IMG/VR virus record: IMGVR_UViG_3300028883_000045
Reading direction: 5' to 3' (one strand)
DNA length: 20,000 nucleotides
From: an uncultured virus (IMG/VR IMGVR_UViG_3300028883_000045)
Lineage: Duplodnaviria > Heunggongvirae > Uroviricota > Caudoviricetes
This document shows, one piece after another, positions 7,235 to 19,840 of this stretch. Numbering within the stretch: the stretch's first letter is position 1; each line of letters starts with the position of its first letter. The notes under the pieces are model-generated. The model was not told where the DNA came from. It searched no databases and saw only the letters and a program-made list of their open reading frames with translations. The position numbers and the translations under genes were made by a program.

Positions 7235-7263
7235 ATTGTACCTCCGCAGAAGTCAGAATTCAA
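7235..7263 (-). promoter_or_regulatory. Sigma70-type promoter
   Basis: TTGAAT (7263-7258), 17 nt, TACAAT (7240-7235): near-consensus in a GC-rich background. Confidence 0.75.
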
Positions 7264-7445
7264 GAATTCTGCAGGCGTTTCTCGGCCTTGGCCCACTGTG
7301 CCTGGGCGTGGCGAACCTCCAGCTCGAGTTCCTGTATCCGGCGGCACGCCGGAGAGCGTTCTCTCCGGTAGACCGATCCGCACTCGAAACCCTTCTTGCC
7401 CAGGGGCAGTTTGACCTCGGGCATTCCGCAGTAGGGGCAGTTCAT
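7260..7445 (-). CDS. Small Cys-rich (zinc-binding) coiled-coil protein
   Basis: MNCPYCG...FECGS...SPAC then heptad-like tail; ATG at 7445 with AAAGGAGA RBS. The longer track ORF reads through the guide array. Confidence 0.7.
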   Translation of the reverse strand: MNCPYCGMPEVKLPLGKKGFECGSVYRRERSPACRRIQELELEVRHAQAQWAKAEKRLQNS

Positions 7446-7470
7446 CGCAGGATCTCCTTTCAAGGGTTGG

Positions 7471-7711
7471 TGGAGGGCAACACAATTATGGGCTTCATTG
7501 ATATCCCGGCCCTCCAGAAAAGCTGAAGGGGGCACAGCGGTCCTGGGCTTCAGTGTATCTATGGCCCCCTTCTCAAAATCAACGGGATGGGCAACGCACT
7601 CTTGGGCTTCATCGGTGTTCTGGCCCACCCCAAAAACATCTCCCTCAAGACGCGGCTTCGGAGGAACGAGCAGGGATCCCTTGGTGCTCACAGTAGTCTT
7701 GGCTCTTCCTC
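7471..7711 (-). ncRNA. TIGR (tandem interspaced guide RNA) stem-loop array, downstream block, 4 units
   Basis: Units 7471-7516, 7525-7572, 7584-7631, 7661-7711. Each reads (minus) stem-GCC[A/G]-9 nt-TGAAGCCCA (TGAGCACCA in the 7661 unit)-9 nt-TG-stem, with complementary flanks; all spacers exactly 9 nt and different. Confidence 0.9.
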
Positions 7712-8499
7712 GCTTCCACCCACAGTTCTCTCAGGAGCCTCTTGGCCACGTAACGGTGCGCCCGCTTGTGGGCGTGGCCGTTTGTGATCTCCGGGTTCTT
7801 TTCCTTCTCGTAGGCCTTGCGTTCATCGTACAAAGCCTTGTACTCCGGATTGCCGCATCGGAGAGCTCCGACGTCCACAATGCTGAATATCTCTGCCCGG
7901 CGGTGCTTGACGTTGGAGATTTCTGCCCACTCCTGGGCATCCGGGTTGTGGTTCCTCCAGCTCGGACAGGTGTACGTGGAGGGAGCCTGACCCTTGTGGA
8001 CGTGCAGGGCGAAACGCTTCCACAGCTTCCCGGGGTTGGAGTATCCCAGAAGATCGCCGGACTCTCCCACGATGCGGGCCAGGCCCATGGCGGTGAAACC
8101 TTTCTTGGACGCGAACCAGGAGTAGTAGGGAAGAGTCTTGGCCAGCGTTTCCATCCGGGATTCGATCCCTGCTCGATAGACGTCGTAGCCTATCCGGGCC
8201 TGCTGCGTTTGCTTTATGAAGGCTATCACGTCATCCGGGTTTGCCCGGAAGTCTTCGGGGAAGGGGGCCGGCTTGTTCTCCTCCACGGCCTTGATCACCT
8301 TCCCGGCGGCAACCCAGACCTTCTTGCGGCTTTTCTCGTCCATGGTGGTCTGGTAGCCGAAGAACCGGGCGACGAGAGCCTGACAGCCGTTGTTCATCTT
8401 GATCTGCATCTTGATGGAGCTCTTGCGCAGACTCTGAAGTTCTTTGAGAGTCTGAAAGACATCACTCGTTTGGAATTCAGCACCGCGTTGGTCTTTCAT
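7645..8499 (-). CDS. tasA: TIGR-associated Nop-domain protein without a nuclease domain (TasA-like; IS110 C-terminal-domain relative)
   Basis: 284 aa: N-terminal coiled coil, then KGFTAMGLARIVGESGDLLGYSNPGKLWKRFAL and YKALYDERKAYE...GHAHKRAHRYVAKRLLRELW (IS110 Transposase_20/Nop-like). No DEDD RuvC or HNH domain seen; flanked on both sides by dual-spacer arrays. Confidence 0.85.
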   Translation of the reverse strand: MKDQRGAEFQTSDVFQTLKELQSLRKSSIKMQIKMNNGCQALVARFFGYQTTMDEKSRKKVWVAAGKVIKAVEENKPAPFPEDFRANPDDVIAFIKQTQQARIGYDVYRAGIESRMETLAKTLPYYSWFASKKGFTAMGLARIVGESGDLLGYSNPGKLWKRFALHVHKGQAPSTYTCPSWRNHNPDAQEWAEISNVKHRRAEIFSIVDVGALRCGNPEYKALYDERKAYEKEKNPEITNGHAHKRAHRYVAKRLLRELWVEARKSQDYCEHQGIPARSSEAAS

Positions 8500-8522
8500 C
8501 GTTTTCTCCTTTCAAGGGTTGG

Positions 8523-8758
8523 TGGAGGGCATCGGTCCCTTGGGCTTCAGTGCGTCTCTGGCTCCTTCTCAAAATCAACGGGATGGGCACCGCAATGGTG
8601 GGTTTCAGCTAAGGAATGGCCCATCCCAAAACCTCCTATGCCGGAAAAGCTAAAGGGGGCACGGCCATTTTGGGCTTCAACGCAATTGTGGCTCCCTTCT
8701 CAAAATCAACGGGATGGGCACCTCAATGTTGGGTTTCACGGACTCTTCGGCCCATCCC
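8523..8758 (-). ncRNA. TIGR stem-loop array, upstream block, 4 units
   Basis: Units 8523-8568, 8580-8627, 8653-8698, 8711-8758; same architecture with loop repeat TGAA[G/A]CCCA, 9+9 nt spacers and U-rich linkers (GTTGATTTTGA). Confidence 0.9.
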
Positions 8759-8766
8759 AAAACCTC

Positions 8767-9276
8767 CTATGCCGGGGGAGCTGTCCGGGCCAGCTTGGTC
8801 TTGATCCGGTCCAGGACCCCTTCCAGCTTCTTGTCGGTGAATACCTGGTCCACCCGCTTCTTGCCTGCTTTCCGGCCCACCGCAGTATAGAAGTCCCGGT
8901 TGAGCTGCTGCCCCAGCATGTCCGTGTGAGCCTTTTTCGCCATTGCCAGCACTTCTTCGCCGGTCATGTCCCCGAACCGGCTGCCATTGACCACCATCTC
9001 CAGCAGGCTGTGTTTCTGGGATGCATCCCGGGCTTCCGAGGCGGCCGCAGCCGCCACGGCCAGCCCCCCGGTTCCCCTCCTGCAGAGAGTGGCCTTGCCT
9101 TTGGCCTGTCTTCGGATGCTCTGCCGGTACTTGTAGAGGACGGCAGAAGCCCCGTGCCACTTGATTTCTTTTATGGCGATGGGGTTGCCCGTGGCCTTCT
9201 TGAGGATGTGCTTCACGGCCTCCTCGGTGTCGGTGCAGAGCTCGCTGGCTTCTTGAACGATTTCGGACAGGGTCAC
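8767..9276 (-). CDS. Hypothetical helical protein immediately upstream of the TIGR array
   Basis: About 169 aa from GTG 9276 (AAAGGAGAAG RBS); its stop lies 8 nt before the first guide unit. Confidence 0.75.
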   Translation of the reverse strand: MTLSEIVQEASELCTDTEEAVKHILKKATGNPIAIKEIKWHGASAVLYKYRQSIRRQAKGKATLCRRGTGGLAVAAAAASEARDASQKHSLLEMVVNGSRFGDMTGEEVLAMAKKAHTDMLGQQLNRDFYTAVGRKAGKKRVDQVFTDKKLEGVLDRIKTKLARTAPPA

Positions 9277-9307
9277 TGCTGCTTCTCCTTTCTGAGCCAC
9301 GTGCGGC

Positions 9308-9547
9308 TCATGTCAACGCTTCCGGTAGCTGGCCCGCGAGAGCCAGCGGCTTTTCGAAGTGTTCCCTGACGCTCATCTTCTTGCGCCCCTTGCAGACCGG
9401 GCAAAGGCAGCGCGAGGGGTCCCAGCCCAGAGACCGCGCGTAATTGTCCATGTGCTCTCTCCGCCTGATGCCCGAGTCGCTGTAGGCGTAGCACCCGCAG
9501 CCGTTGCACTGCATGTGCCAGCTGTCGTTGCGCCAGAAGAGGCTCAT
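9308..9547 (-). CDS. Small zinc-finger protein
   Basis: CNGC...GW...LCPVC; ATGA overlap with the upstream stop. Confidence 0.65.
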   Translation of the reverse strand: MSLFWRNDSWHMQCNGCGCYAYSDSGIRRREHMDNYARSLGWDPSRCLCPVCKGRKKMSVREHFEKPLALAGQLPEALT

Positions 9548-9879
9548 GACGAATGCTTCTCCTCCCACAGCGCTCGGCACTTCGGGCACCGTGCATGCAG
9601 CAGCTTGCGCGCCGCCTCGACGTCCACCCGGGCGTTCAGGTGCTCGGGCGGCAGGTACGAGAAGTCGGGCTGCTCGATGGGCGTCTTGTGTCCCGCGAAC
9701 GTCGCGGCCAACTCGTCATGCCGGCGCTTGTAGGCCAGGGGTTCTATGGCGTTGCCGGCCACGCGGCCGGCGATACTGTGTCGCTTGCGCCAGTTGTGCT
9801 CGTGCTTGTGATACTCGTTGTGCTCGCCTGACCGGTGCTGCAGGCACATTTCATCCACCGGCTGCATCCACATTCGCAT
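9544..9879 (-). CDS. Pyrimidine-dimer DNA glycosylase / endonuclease V-like protein
   Basis: MRMW...MC.QH..GEH.E.H N-terminus and RHDEL...H.TP, plus C-terminal RCPKC; resembles the Pyr_excise family. Confidence 0.7.
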   Translation of the reverse strand: MRMWMQPVDEMCLQHRSGEHNEYHKHEHNWRKRHSIAGRVAGNAIEPLAYKRRHDELAATFAGHKTPIEQPDFSYLPPEHLNARVDVEAARKLLHARCPKCRALWEEKHSS

Positions 9880-16603: not shown

Positions 16604-17214
16604 TTCCCGTCCTCCCCCTGCATGAACTCCAGTCCGAAATCTTCGCGATTCACCATGGCCGTCATGACGACCGCCGTCGCGCCGGACTCCCCCTTGATCA
16701 ACAAGGGTCGTGTGTCACATTCTTGGCAGGCGCGGAACCCCAGCCCCTCGAATATTTCCAGCGCCGCGGACAAGTACGAGTGATCGAAGATTGGGAATTT
16801 CTCACGGTCCATGTTAATACGCTTGGAGTAGCGGAGGGTCAGGGCGGCCGCGAGGGCTTCAGGCAAGTGGCAGCGCGCGACCTCGATCCCCATCGACTCC
16901 GGCGGGATCACCGTGCGCCAGTCGGGATACTTCAGCGTGCCCTCGGTGTTCTTCTCCAGCCATAGCACCGTCTTGGTACGCTTGCGGACTTTCCACAGGG
17001 CGGTTTTTCTGAGGGACTCGGGGACCTTGTCAGCCGGAAGCTCGTAGGAGTGCAGGCGCCGCGCGTCGCACCCGACAACGTGTAGCTTCTTGCGCTTGAG
17101 CTCGGTGCGCAGATTTGACAGGGGGTCGCCCCGGGAGTCTCCCTCGCGCACGGCCCCGGATACCCACCGTAGGGCTTCGAACGCAGCGCAGGTTTTGCGG
17201 GTAATCTCGATCAT
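16600..17214 (-). CDS. DNA polymerase III beta-clamp-like protein (short, about two domains)
   Basis: 204 aa from ATG 17214; DSR..L..L...VVGCDARRL, KYPDWRTVIP, FDHSYL..AL, PLLI...AVVM correspond to DnaN motifs (ATDGHRL, G.YP.Y..VIP, FN..YL.D.L, vvMP). Confidence 0.7.
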   Translation of the reverse strand: MIEITRKTCAAFEALRWVSGAVREGDSRGDPLSNLRTELKRKKLHVVGCDARRLHSYELPADKVPESLRKTALWKVRKRTKTVLWLEKNTEGTLKYPDWRTVIPPESMGIEVARCHLPEALAAALTLRYSKRINMDREKFPIFDHSYLSAALEIFEGLGFRACQECDTRPLLIKGESGATAVVMTAMVNREDFGLEFMQGEDGK

Positions 17215-17444
17215 TTCTCGTCCTCCATCTTGGCCATGATTGCGCGGGCTTGTGTCATTTCGTCGCTGTAGTCGATCAGCGTCTTCTCGAGGCACTTGAG
17301 CAAAACCTTGCAGGTTGTCAGCAACTTGTTGCGTTGCCTTTTGACCTTGCACAACTTGCAGACCTCGACCTCGTCGCGGTCGAGCACGATCGAACAGTCG
17401 GTGCAGTAGCGCGAGCTACTGACATATACGTCCTTTGGATTCAC
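17211..17444 (-). CDS. Small zinc-finger/helical protein
   Basis: CTDC...CKLC then LL..CK.LL...ARAIMAK; GTG 17444 with GGAGGACG RBS. Confidence 0.65.
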   Translation of the reverse strand: MNPKDVYVSSSRYCTDCSIVLDRDEVEVCKLCKVKRQRNKLLTTCKVLLKCLEKTLIDYSDEMTQARAIMAKMEDEK

Positions 17445-17497
17445 CTCTCGTCCTCCATCTTGGCGGCCTTGGGCCGCGTCCATCTTCCGGCGTATTA

Positions 17498-17944
17498 CTA
17501 CTCGCCCTTAACTCGGTTCATAACCGCGTGCGTCGTTTCCATTTCGGGATAGACCGCGCGCTCCGCGTCGCCCTCGATCGCCAGGGCATGCTCGCGGGGG
17601 AAATTCGGGTTCAGCTGGCCAGCGTCGATCCACGTGCGGACCTCTGCGGGGGTCCCAAGAAAATTGTAGCAGGCATTCCCGCGCATGACTCCGGTGCGCT
17701 GGTCCGTGTCGGCCAGCACAGGCTGGTCCCATCCCGCGAAAACCGCATCCCGGAAGGGCTTGACCGGCGCGCTGGCGTAGTCCCGGGACTGCAGCCTCAG
17801 GAGGTAGCGCTTGCGCTTGCCCCGAAGGGAGTAAATCGGATTTCCCTCCGGGTCGAAGTCCTTGACAGTGATTTCGCTCCGGCGGGTCATTGCCATCATG
17901 GAATCAATCCGGTAAATCGTGTAGCGCTCGCCAGCCTTGAACAT
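17498..17944 (-). CDS. Hypothetical protein
   Basis: 148 aa, GGAGGACG RBS. Confidence 0.75.
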   Translation of the reverse strand: MFKAGERYTIYRIDSMMAMTRRSEITVKDFDPEGNPIYSLRGKRKRYLLRLQSRDYASAPVKPFRDAVFAGWDQPVLADTDQRTGVMRGNACYNFLGTPAEVRTWIDAGQLNPNFPREHALAIEGDAERAVYPEMETTHAVMNRVKGE

Positions 17945-17946
17945 GT

Positions 17947-18595
17947 TCTCGTCCTCCTTCTGGGCCCCGGAGGGCCTGCCGTTCTTGGGTTCCGCGTGTT
18001 ACGCCACCCGTCCGTCTTCCACAAGCTCGCACATGTCCGCATCGACGGCCGCGCGCGCCTGGGACAACATGTCTTCGCGACCGTAGAAGCCCCAACACGA
18101 ATCTATATCTCGCCCCCGGTGCGTGACCACGTAACCCCACACGTCTCCCCGCAGATACTGGTCGAACGCCTCGACTTCGGAGACCAGACACTTGCGGGCG
18201 GCCTCTTCGTCGTCCCCGAATTCCTTCTTGACCGTCTCGCGGTCCGCGTAGATCCAGCCGACTTGTCCCGAGTCCCAGGGGCAGCGAAAACCGGTTATGT
18301 TCATAGTCAGCCCCGAGTGGTCGTAGAGGTAGAGGGGCAGGACAACCAGGTCGTGCTCCCGGCGGTACTCTTCGAACTCTCCGGGGGAACTGAACTCGTG
18401 TTCGTCTCCCAGCCTATAACGCGAGTGGAAGCAGACCATGGTGCCGAACGTGTCCCACTCTCTGGGCGACTCTCCGCAATCGTCTCGCTCGATGGAAATC
18501 TTGTAGCCGTTATAGTCAATGACGTCCTGCATCTCTCGTCCTCCATCTTGGCCCCGGAGGGCCTGCCGTTCTTGGGTTCCGCGCGTTACGCCACC
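17947..18595. repeat. 62-bp direct repeat pair (17947-18008 and 18534-18595) flanking one gene
   Basis: 3 mismatches in 62 bp; each copy ends in the RBS of the downstream gene. Confidence 0.9.
17999..18532 (-). CDS. Conserved uncharacterised phage/ICE early protein
   Basis: 177 aa from ATG 18532; SPREWD..G, LPLYLYDHSG, WDSGQVGWIY, DQYLRGDVWGY, DSCWGFYG motifs. Confidence 0.8.
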   Translation of the reverse strand: MQDVIDYNGYKISIERDDCGESPREWDTFGTMVCFHSRYRLGDEHEFSSPGEFEEYRREHDLVVLPLYLYDHSGLTMNITGFRCPWDSGQVGWIYADRETVKKEFGDDEEAARKCLVSEVEAFDQYLRGDVWGYVVTHRGRDIDSCWGFYGREDMLSQARAAVDADMCELVEDGRVA

Positions 18596-18644
18596 TGCCC
18601 GGGGCATTACATCCCCGCCGAGGCGGGGGCGGCTCTGCCGGGGC
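18551..18644 (-). ncRNA. Degenerate twister-like RNA (copy 1)
   Basis: GCCCCG-GCA-GAG-CC-[P1 hairpin]-UAA-UGC...CGGCAGGC...CGGGGC; P4 is poor. Confidence 0.3.
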
Positions 18645-18902
18645 TCAGGCCAGTTGATAGTACATCGGCAGGCCCATCGCATCACAGTGGCCCTCTACTG
18701 CCTCGCCGTCGGCCACCATCGCCCGCAGGATCGACTCCTCGGCCTCACTCTCGGGATAGAGCGCATGACTGGCTCCCTCGCCGGTGAGTGCTAGCCGCTC
18801 GACCATGCCGCGGATCTCTGCCGCAGTCGTGCACGGCGCGTGGTGCTCATAGGGCCCGCTGATGTAGCTGGTCATGCTCATGATGCTAGTTTCAAGTTTC
18901 AT
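18645..18902 (-). CDS. Hypothetical 85-aa early protein, copy A
   Basis: ATG 18902 with GGGAGG RBS; 7 aa differences from copy B. Confidence 0.75.
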   Translation of the reverse strand: MKLETSIMSMTSYISGPYEHHAPCTTAAEIRGMVERLALTGEGASHALYPESEAEESILRAMVADGEAVEGHCDAMGLPMYYQLA

Positions 18903-19514: not shown

Positions 19515-19580
19515 CCCGCCGTGACTTGCCGCACGGCCGGGGCATTACACCCCCGCCGGAGCGGGGGCGGCTCTGCCGGG
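19515..19580 (-). ncRNA. Twister ribozyme-like RNA, P5-type permutation (copy 2)
   Basis: CCCG-GCA-GAG-CC-GCCCCCGC UCCG GCGGGGGU-G-UAA-UGC-CCCGG-CCGUG CGGCAAGU CACGG-CGGG: P1, P2, P4, P5 and the T1 pseudoknot (CGGC/GCCG) pair; T2 is imperfect. Confidence 0.55.
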
Positions 19581-19582
19581 GC

Positions 19583-19840
19583 TCAGGCCAGTTGATAGTA
19601 CATCGGCAGGCCCATCGCATCACAGTGGCCCTCGACTGCCTCGCCGTCGGCCACCATCGCCCGCAGGATAGCCTCCTCGGCCTCACTCTCGGGATAGAGC
19701 GCATGACTGGCTCCCTCGCCGGTGAGTGCTAGCTGCTCGACCATGCCGCGGAGCTCTGCCGCAGTCCTGCACGGCGCGGAGTGCTCATAGGGCCCGCTGA
19801 TGTAGCTGGTCTGACTCATGATGCTGGTTTCGATTTTCAT
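19583..19840 (-). CDS. Hypothetical 85-aa early protein, copy B (first gene after the promoter)
   Basis: ATG 19840 with GAGGGAG RBS. Confidence 0.75.
   Translation of the reverse strand: MKIETSIMSQTSYISGPYEHSAPCRTAAELRGMVEQLALTGEGASHALYPESEAEEAILRAMVADGEAVEGHCDAMGLPMYYQLA

Follow-up and report, generated by a model that had tools for sequence, protein, structure and literature searches.

The stretch of 20,000 nucleotides analysed here (the window) contains an optional two-gene cassette of the stem-loop TIGR-TasA type, which most likely silences foreign DNA through RNA-guided binding (at a probability of about 0.7). This reading starts from what the analysis established directly, namely the anatomy of the locus, the fold of its TasA protein and the nuclease that this protein is missing, the linkage of tasA to a second gene and the spacer differences between alleles. 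The features of the cassette are collected in Table 1.

Table 1. Features of the TIGR-TasA cassette and its borders (positions are those of the window)
Feature	Position	Strand	Basis
Upstream-border ATGA, contains the stop of ORF 9308-9589	9308..9311	-	
Whole optional cassette: partner, arrays, tasA, new ribosome-binding site	7442..9307	-	1,866 bp skipped in one independent-sample contig
Possible 12-codon bridge ORF; begins at the border ATG, its stop overlaps the partner GTG	9273..9311	-	read from sequence
169-aa basic, predicted helical partner protein, unnamed family	8767..9276	-	HMM made without the window
Guide unit U1, stem type 1	8709..8760, core 8719-8750	-	pattern + covariance model
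Guide unit U2, stem type 2	8650..8701, core 8660-8691	-	pattern + covariance model
Guide unit U3, stem type 1	8578..8629, core 8588-8619	-	pattern + covariance model
Guide unit U4, weak stem, type 2 left arm, type 3 right arm	8520..8571, core 8530-8561	-	
27-nt repeat with ribosome-binding site before tasA, identical to 7453-7479	8505..8531	-	repeat search
tasA, 284 aa: coiled coil + Nop RNA-binding domain, no nuclease domain	7645..8499	-	ORF, sequence match, structure model
Guide unit U5, inside tasA	8450..8501, core 8460-8491	-	pattern + covariance model
Guide unit U6, inside tasA	7661..7712, core 7671-7702	-	pattern + covariance model
Guide unit U7, stem type 1	7582..7633, core 7592-7623	-	pattern + covariance model
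Guide unit U8, stem type 2	7523..7574, core 7533-7564	-	pattern, folding energy, covariance model
Guide unit U9, stem type 3	7468..7519, core 7478-7509	-	pattern + covariance model
27-nt repeat copy 2, gives a ribosome-binding site to the post-cassette host-operon gene	7453..7479	-	repeat search
Downstream-border ATGA, start of ORF 7260-7445	7442..7445	-	

The 284-aa protein is a nuclease-free Nop-domain TasA. Its sole significant sequence match in the PDB was TaTasR (9MTY, E 3.8e-6). The structure model, built with 108 sequences, reached a pLDDT of 93.5; its first helix starts at residue 11, so that no room is left for a nuclease, and its last helix is followed by just 12 low-confidence residues. 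A Foldseek search with this model returned nine matches under E 0.001, all of them TasR or TasH. In a wide structural search, TasR 9MTY (Z 16.5, rmsd 2.7, 188 aligned), TasH (Z 15.6) and the IS110 protein ISCro4 (Z 13.2) stood far above the remaining matches, with Nop5 or Prp31 at Z 7.5. No Pfam match to RuvC or HNH was observed in the protein or in its 108 aligned relatives, among which Transposase_20 was the only Pfam family detected (20 of 108), and the protein matched a PHROG 'transposase' at E 3.4e-11. When the sequence was aligned with 9MTY, F205 fell on TaTasR Y238, which is the unwinding aromatic according to the available portion of a preprint (Guan et al. 2026, bioRxiv 10.64898/2026.08.11.744272). 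The original prediction had proposed a TIGR-TasA system whose protein has no RuvC or HNH domain, with a structural comparison to Tas, IS110 and Nop proteins as a check. This comparison revealed a Nop fold with TasR and TasH closest, above IS110 and Nop5, and together with the 9MTY sequence match and the stem-loop box C/D units it upholds the TIGR/TasA identity; the missing nuclease is likewise confirmed by the lack of a Pfam match and by a model core that begins at residue 11.

The protein belongs to a large clade, since 2,351 cluster representatives matched it at E 0.001. Neither TasA nor two neighbouring genes revealed a close relative in the viral collection, GenBank phages gave no DNA-level match, and PADLOC gave zero matches. 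In the closest other TasA loci (64% identity), the stop of tasA is overlapped by an independent gene of the RuvC family (L001 956-1489, plus strand, and likewise in L002); the L001 gene matched Pfam RuvC at E 1.3e-4 (22.3 bits vs a cut-off of 22.2), and could be either a usual phage resolvase or a nuclease provided in trans. An IS110/IS1111 bridge recombinase was also considered as the identity of the window protein, and is largely refuted by the absence of the N-terminal DEDD RuvC-like catalytic domain.

We then analyzed the guide array. A pattern search of the window detected nine exact CC[A/G]-N9-TGA-N3-CCA-N9-TG matches on the minus strand, from 7478 to 8750, while shuffled sequence contained a mean of 0.70 and at most 3 matches even when one mismatch was allowed (200 shuffles). 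Four units are located upstream of tasA, two inside the gene and three downstream. The pattern and the strand had been predicted correctly, but the count of eight units, four on each side of the gene, was wrong: U5, with the loop TGAATTCCA, had been overlooked, and both U5 and the supposed first downstream unit, U6, sit within tasA (codons 3-14 and 266-277, respectively). Both lie outside the core common to relatives, which spans approximately residues 11-265 in most of the 150 matches listed, and tasA residues 1-9, which overlap U5, have a pLDDT below 50. As had also been claimed, every one of the 18 spacers is 9 nt long and all are distinct, although three pairs are identical at 7 of 9 letters (0.24 pairs expected).

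The flanking stems form 6-7 of 7 pairs in eight of the nine units, and 3 of 7 in U4, against a background mean of 2.5 pairs, with six or more at 1.1% of sites. Across the nine units 87.7% of the stem cells are paired, compared with 72.4% in shuffles (0 of 500 shuffles were as high), seven of the nine stem pairs show both-sided change, and covariation was 0.58 vs 0.27 when shuffled, values to be read with the caveat that the units are paralogues and that the structure was read from the same units. When single units were folded, U8 alone stood out (z -3.64), the other eight ranging from -1.52 to +0.51. A covariance model made from the nine units detected no tenth unit in the window, and the Rfam search gave zero matches. 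The units are spaced 55-72 nt apart and have three stem types; the alternating edge and loop repeats with a 36-nt period of dual-repeat TIGR arrays were not found. By eye, the CUU motif described for the stem base (Xu et al. 2026, bioRxiv 10.64898/2026.09.09.750476) was seen after U2, U5 and U8 and at a greater distance after U4 and U9, and was absent after U1, U3, U6 and U7. No sigma-70 promoter or terminator was identified inside the cassette, and counts were at chance level. The blocks on the two sides of tasA are duplicates, 77% identical over 122 nt. In a wider survey with a relaxed finder, intragenic guides were detected in 51 of 88 loci, a possible overcount given that the ORF starts were set mechanically. 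Among the TasA relatives (loci L003-L082), many long 'disordered' N-terminal extensions correspond to guide units translated in frame, and the real start codons of such proteins may be further down.

The locus combines a nuclease-free coiled coil and Nop protein with two-spacer box C/D units and variable palindromic stems, and is a stem-loop TIGR-TasA. With PlTasA, BlTasA and MbTasA it shares the Nop-only protein, the arrays on both sides of the gene, the guides within coding sequence, and the palindrome-flanked units with two 9-nt spacers, CCA and UG boxes and a 9-nt loop. Much of this is already published. In the available text of Faure et al. (2025, PMC12045711), TasA was defined together with the stem-loop arrays, of which one locus has three subarrays, and TasA is said to lack 'clear associations with other proteins'. 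A later preprint (Xu et al. 2026, bioRxiv 10.64898/2026.09.09.750476) described 2,559 stem-loop arrays, flanking both sides of tas and inside it, and reported that MbTasA binds and represses targets, natural function aside: targets and spacer acquisition are described there as still unknown. The structure of PlTasA on DNA has been solved, according to the portion of Guan et al. 2026 (bioRxiv 10.64898/2026.08.11.744272) at hand, and spacer-dependent binding or repression of an 18-bp target is on record for MbTasA and PlTasA. Hence TasA and the array are on their own ordinary for the family, stem-loop TasA, split arrays, intragenic guides and repression being already in print, and a programmable, non-cutting binder or repressor, now demonstrated for other stem-loop TasA proteins and by analogy suggested here, is less open and less new than had been assumed. 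The closest solved folds, TaTasR (PDB 9MTY) and SpTasH (9W03, 9W04, 21KL), share the coiled coil, the Nop core and the box motifs, but they have RuvC or HNH nucleases and dual-repeat 36-nt guides, and the window TasA has neither. The IS110 bridge recombinases (IS621, ISCro4) and the Nop5 of box C/D sRNPs contain a homologous RNA-binding domain; unlike IS110, the window TasA has no recombinase domain and no two-loop bridge RNA, and the fibrillarin and L7Ae partners of a box C/D sRNP gave no match among the 33 window ORFs scanned, nor did Rfam. The locus departs from the described kind in having a conserved second gene, in its tentative borders as a cassette and in the visible turnover of its spacers; the conserved upstream partner, the empty-site allele and the strain-level replacement of spacers are not described for stem-loop TasA in the parts of the literature available to us. 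The nearest parallel is the TasA-TasParB operon, in which, according to the available text of Faure et al. 2025 (PMC12045711), a nuclease-free TasA is likewise accompanied by a conserved second gene, with the array sometimes between them. Those operons have dual-repeat arrays and a ParB-like partner, whereas the partner family of the window has neither a ParB nor any other Pfam match (63 members).

The linkage of the partner gene to tasA was analyzed in 80 viral TasA loci, the best of 175 that had been confirmed, with an HMM iterated without the window. The HMM matched one ORF in 72 of the 80 loci, in each case immediately upstream of tasA and on the strand of tasA, with no match elsewhere in these loci, and it matched the window ORF at E 1e-12, whereas the best reversed-ORF control reached 0.011. 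As for the eight loci that gave no match, four have less than 1.5 kb upstream, and three of the four others show a weak match at the same place. After clustering the tas genes at 70% identity, the partner was present in 52 of the 56 clusters that could be evaluated. In the two metagenome loci the sequence stops too near tas for the partner to be assessed. Conversely, tasA was immediately downstream in 14 of 14 loci fetched by the partner, four of them on new contigs, with the proviso that the HMM was grown from TasA loci and that this reciprocal test covers one partner subclade. The partner was also found at both genome loci and in the Rhizobium phage RHph_X2_25 (E 3.4e-17), and two distant partner subclades could be aligned by profile with 96.6% probability. 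In 30 of the 72 loci the partner stop is at most 14 nt from the first in-frame tas start. Furthermore, the distances of partner and TasA are correlated (Spearman 0.41, permutation maximum 0.15), as shared ancestry alone would also produce. In the window, the bridge ORF at the upstream border is a candidate for translational coupling with the partner, to judge from the sequence.

The partner proteins are basic (pI 9.7 in the window, median 9.2 in the family) and highly divergent, with a median identity of 18% and just 3% of the pairs reaching 50%. No family name was obtained from Pfam, PHROG, NCBIfam or the PDB, no known catalytic fold or family was found, and the 63 members share no invariant column; ParB was absent, at the sequence level, from the Pfam matches of these members and from the PDB profile search. 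A weak search among longer proteins gave no partner-TasA fusion, and tblastn with one member retrieved nothing from GenBank phages or plasmids. Word and atlas searches with the partner of the window returned only the protein itself or nothing, but the protein gave weak matches in the fetched loci, just upstream of tas. A typical member gave unnamed viral clusters (0.82 and 0.79) that serve as leads only. The single-sequence model of the partner was poor (pLDDT 47.7). Guide-like units were present inside the coding sequence of 11 of 73 partner ORFs (L013, L014, L016, L020, L041, L048, L051, L057, L073, L007 and L081), and not in that of the window. No mention of such a partner was found in the portion of the TIGR literature covered, the figures and supplements of which may show one. 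In the available text of Faure et al. 2025 (PMC12045711) neighbours were clustered at 50% identity and the ParB partner of dual-repeat loci was the only one found; the partner could have been overlooked because its pairs rarely reach this level. The conserved partner fits with a remark in the original prediction that the system might recruit another effector.

The stretch was present in three marine sediment runs, two of which match the window without any difference and may be where it comes from, the third being from another study. A putative empty site was observed in one contig from the run that also carries a sister TasA allele: there, 7441 is joined to 9308, at a depth of 25, with four letters (ATGA) fitting both sides. 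This empty allele is one contig joint, the short side of which has 26 letters, below the 30-letter caution of the tool. When the cassette is absent, the flanking genes overlap stop-on-start at the ATGA. Depths in this run were 42-45 for the flanks, 9-15 for the cassette and 25 for the joint, in accord with a mixed population, under the tool's caution that depth is not a share of cells. The GC content of the cassette is 58%, compared with 63% in both flanks. Insertion would be favoured over deletion as the direction of change, since the stop/start overlap is intact when the cassette is absent, and since the cassette has a lower GC content and a downstream ribosome-binding site of its own; a deletion at the 4-letter match is the alternative. 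All nine guides had 7-10 mismatches of 18 with the empty site or with a circle junction, and self-guided mobility is therefore unsupported. Two further spots near the cassette appear to vary. At about 7275, right after the small post-cassette ORF, a flanking contig of run X3 has approximately 350 extra letters, which may mark a second variable spot adjoining a promoter-like site (7263-7235); and contigs of two runs (X1 and X2) break or branch at 9517-9607, which suggests another polymorphic site just upstream of the cassette.

The sister allele of the third run encodes a TasA that is 95% identical to that of the window (P0003). Over 7576-8531 the two differ at 27 letters. Of these, 25 lie in tasA, one of them in the U5 loop, and the other two are in U7, where they alter spacer A but not spacer B; U5 and U6 have the same spacers in both alleles. 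Upstream of the sister tasA, a type-2 unit is followed by a type-3 unit, both with other spacers, in the same order as U8 and U9 downstream in the window. The window holds the single unit U4 where the sister has two, and U4 is probably a deletion chimera of two units. The scaffolds are kept in the sister allele and the intergenic spacers are changed; the unchanged intragenic spacers may be fixed by protein coding. In two near-identical loci of the 64% relative, two letters differ in one spacer. Arrays thus seem to evolve as blocks are duplicated, units are lost, and spacers are either edited at a few letters or changed wholesale. In addition, 22 of the 25 tasA differences and 12 of the 15 amino-acid changes are within 7777-7977 (codons 175-241), which could be a recombined patch or reflect diversifying selection near DNA-contacting loops.

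As to the genomic context, the long ORFs on the minus strand encode, among others, an SNF2 helicase, a VRR-NUC nuclease, a Pam3 gp33-like protein, an HTH protein and a DUF4942 protein, and an AAA/DUF3150/DUF2997 block is on the same strand. Such genes would be at home in the early, replication-related part of a phage genome or of a similar element. A phage origin, as originally proposed, is thus likely from the replication-type genes, but is left unproven by the window, which contains no virion gene. A 300-nt duplication (94%) of a small gene is present at 18590-18889 and 19528-19827, and further intergenic blocks are repeated at 17212-18601, before short ORFs; together, these repeats look like a recombining early-gene cassette array. 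In the cultured Rhizobium phage RHph_X2_25 (L097, MW960032 23652-25718), the partner, tasA and at least six degenerate units were found; both genes are annotated as hypothetical and are divergent from an annotated repressor gene.

In order to search for targets, each was taken as spacer A plus the reverse complement of spacer B (18 bp), a geometry read from the available text of Faure et al. 2025 (PMC12045711). The best window matches of the nine guides had 3-6 mismatches, and no site with two or fewer mismatches to any of them was found in the 20 kb covered, which belong to a 76-kb contig. U7 matched position 16951 (minus strand) with three mismatches, two at third codon positions and one amino-acid change, and U8 matched the duplicated gene with four, three at third positions; shuffling placed both at chance level (P 0.12 and 0.13). 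Extended to 292 distinct units from 57 of 88 loci, the search gave no site with 0-1 mismatch, and the true orientation was no better than three controls; it covered approximately 20 kb per locus and, for six guides, the complete 68.8-kb RHph_X2_25 genome. No third-position bias was detected with 293 guides (56/187 in the true orientation vs 68/189, 64/189 and 48/155 in the controls). The targets are probably outside the neighbourhood. By estimate, an 18-bp target would give approximately 17 exact matches per guide by chance in 596 billion bases.

These results would be accommodated by a model in which the cassette sits in an early/replication operon of a phage-like element and read-through transcription leads to hairpin guides. 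A TasA dimer would take one guide, whose spacers A and B would each base-pair with a different strand of an 18-bp DNA target, and the nuclease-free complex would stay on the DNA and block transcription of non-self DNA, be it a competing phage or element, or the host. Processing, the dimer, the target geometry and repression are carried over from papers on other TasA proteins. That the targets may be non-self is suggested by the lack of matches within approximately 20 kb per locus and in one complete phage genome. The upstream protein would be a dedicated helper co-made with TasA, and probably dispensable for binding itself; in E. coli, the Tas gene and a guide suffice for MbTasA to repress (Xu et al. 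2026, bioRxiv 10.64898/2026.09.09.750476), and repression there thus needs no partner.

Several other explanations have to be weighed against silencing of foreign DNA. Guides could be directed against close kin, namely alleles of the element's own genes, with mismatches shielding self and the cassette acting as a weapon against cassette-free siblings. The U7 and U8 matches, in which most mismatches are at third codon positions, and a cassette-free sibling that seems to co-occur with the carrier in the same sample are in its favour, but these matches are at chance level and third-position mismatches are no commoner than in the controls, which makes it a rather unlikely reading. Control of the element's own life cycle, by repression of its own promoters, is very unlikely: the divergent partner-tasA pair of RHph_X2_25 lies beside an annotated repressor gene, and the intragenic spacers are unchanged in the sister allele, but the guides find no close site in the 20 kb of the window, in the approximately 20 kb covered per locus or, for six guides, in the complete RHph_X2_25 genome, the cassette seems dispensable, and the constancy of these spacers may come from protein coding. 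An IS110-family element with a bridge RNA, intact or decayed, is hardly credible. It would explain the 'transposase' matches and the presence/absence with a 4-letter shared border; however, there is no N-terminal recombinase domain, the RNA units are nine separate single hairpins, Tas structures outrank IS110 and the guides do not match the junctions.

The partner might also be an effector or maintenance subunit that gives the TasA complex a second activity, such as guide maturation, spacer rewriting or cassette movement. The partner occupies the place where TasR and TasH carry their N-terminal nuclease, it is included within the cassette borders, and its near-fixed reciprocal linkage, often with stop/start coupling, persists despite the median identity of 18%; the correlated distances also point this way, though common descent would suffice for them. 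Moreover, the known processing loop is missing from stem-loop Tas proteins, and there is no known machinery for acquisition (Xu et al. 2026, bioRxiv 10.64898/2026.09.09.750476). Against this stand the lack of a known catalytic fold or of an invariant column, guides at least seven mismatches away from the empty site or circle junction, and the partner-free activity of TasA in E. coli, and we regard it as improbable. A broader proposal, that of a two-protein system in which the partner matures guides, rewrites spacers or lends an effector in trans, and in which the cassette spreads non-polarly into phage stop/start overlaps, is doubtful too, if somewhat less so. Silencing of foreign DNA by the TasA complex, with the partner as a helper, is the reading that we prefer.

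The TIGR papers, in the portions available (Faure et al. 2025, PMC12045711; Xu et al. 2026, bioRxiv 10.64898/2026.09.09.750476), leave three questions: by which route stem-loop guides mature, how arrays gain spacers and what the natural role of these systems is. The locus bears on all three through a candidate component, an allele comparison and tentative natural borders. The candidate component, overlooked so far, would escape the clustering of neighbours at 50% identity, and the close alleles present the same scaffolds with different spacers. Since the cultured phage RHph_X2_25 carries the partner, tasA and guide units, knock-outs would be possible in its native host.
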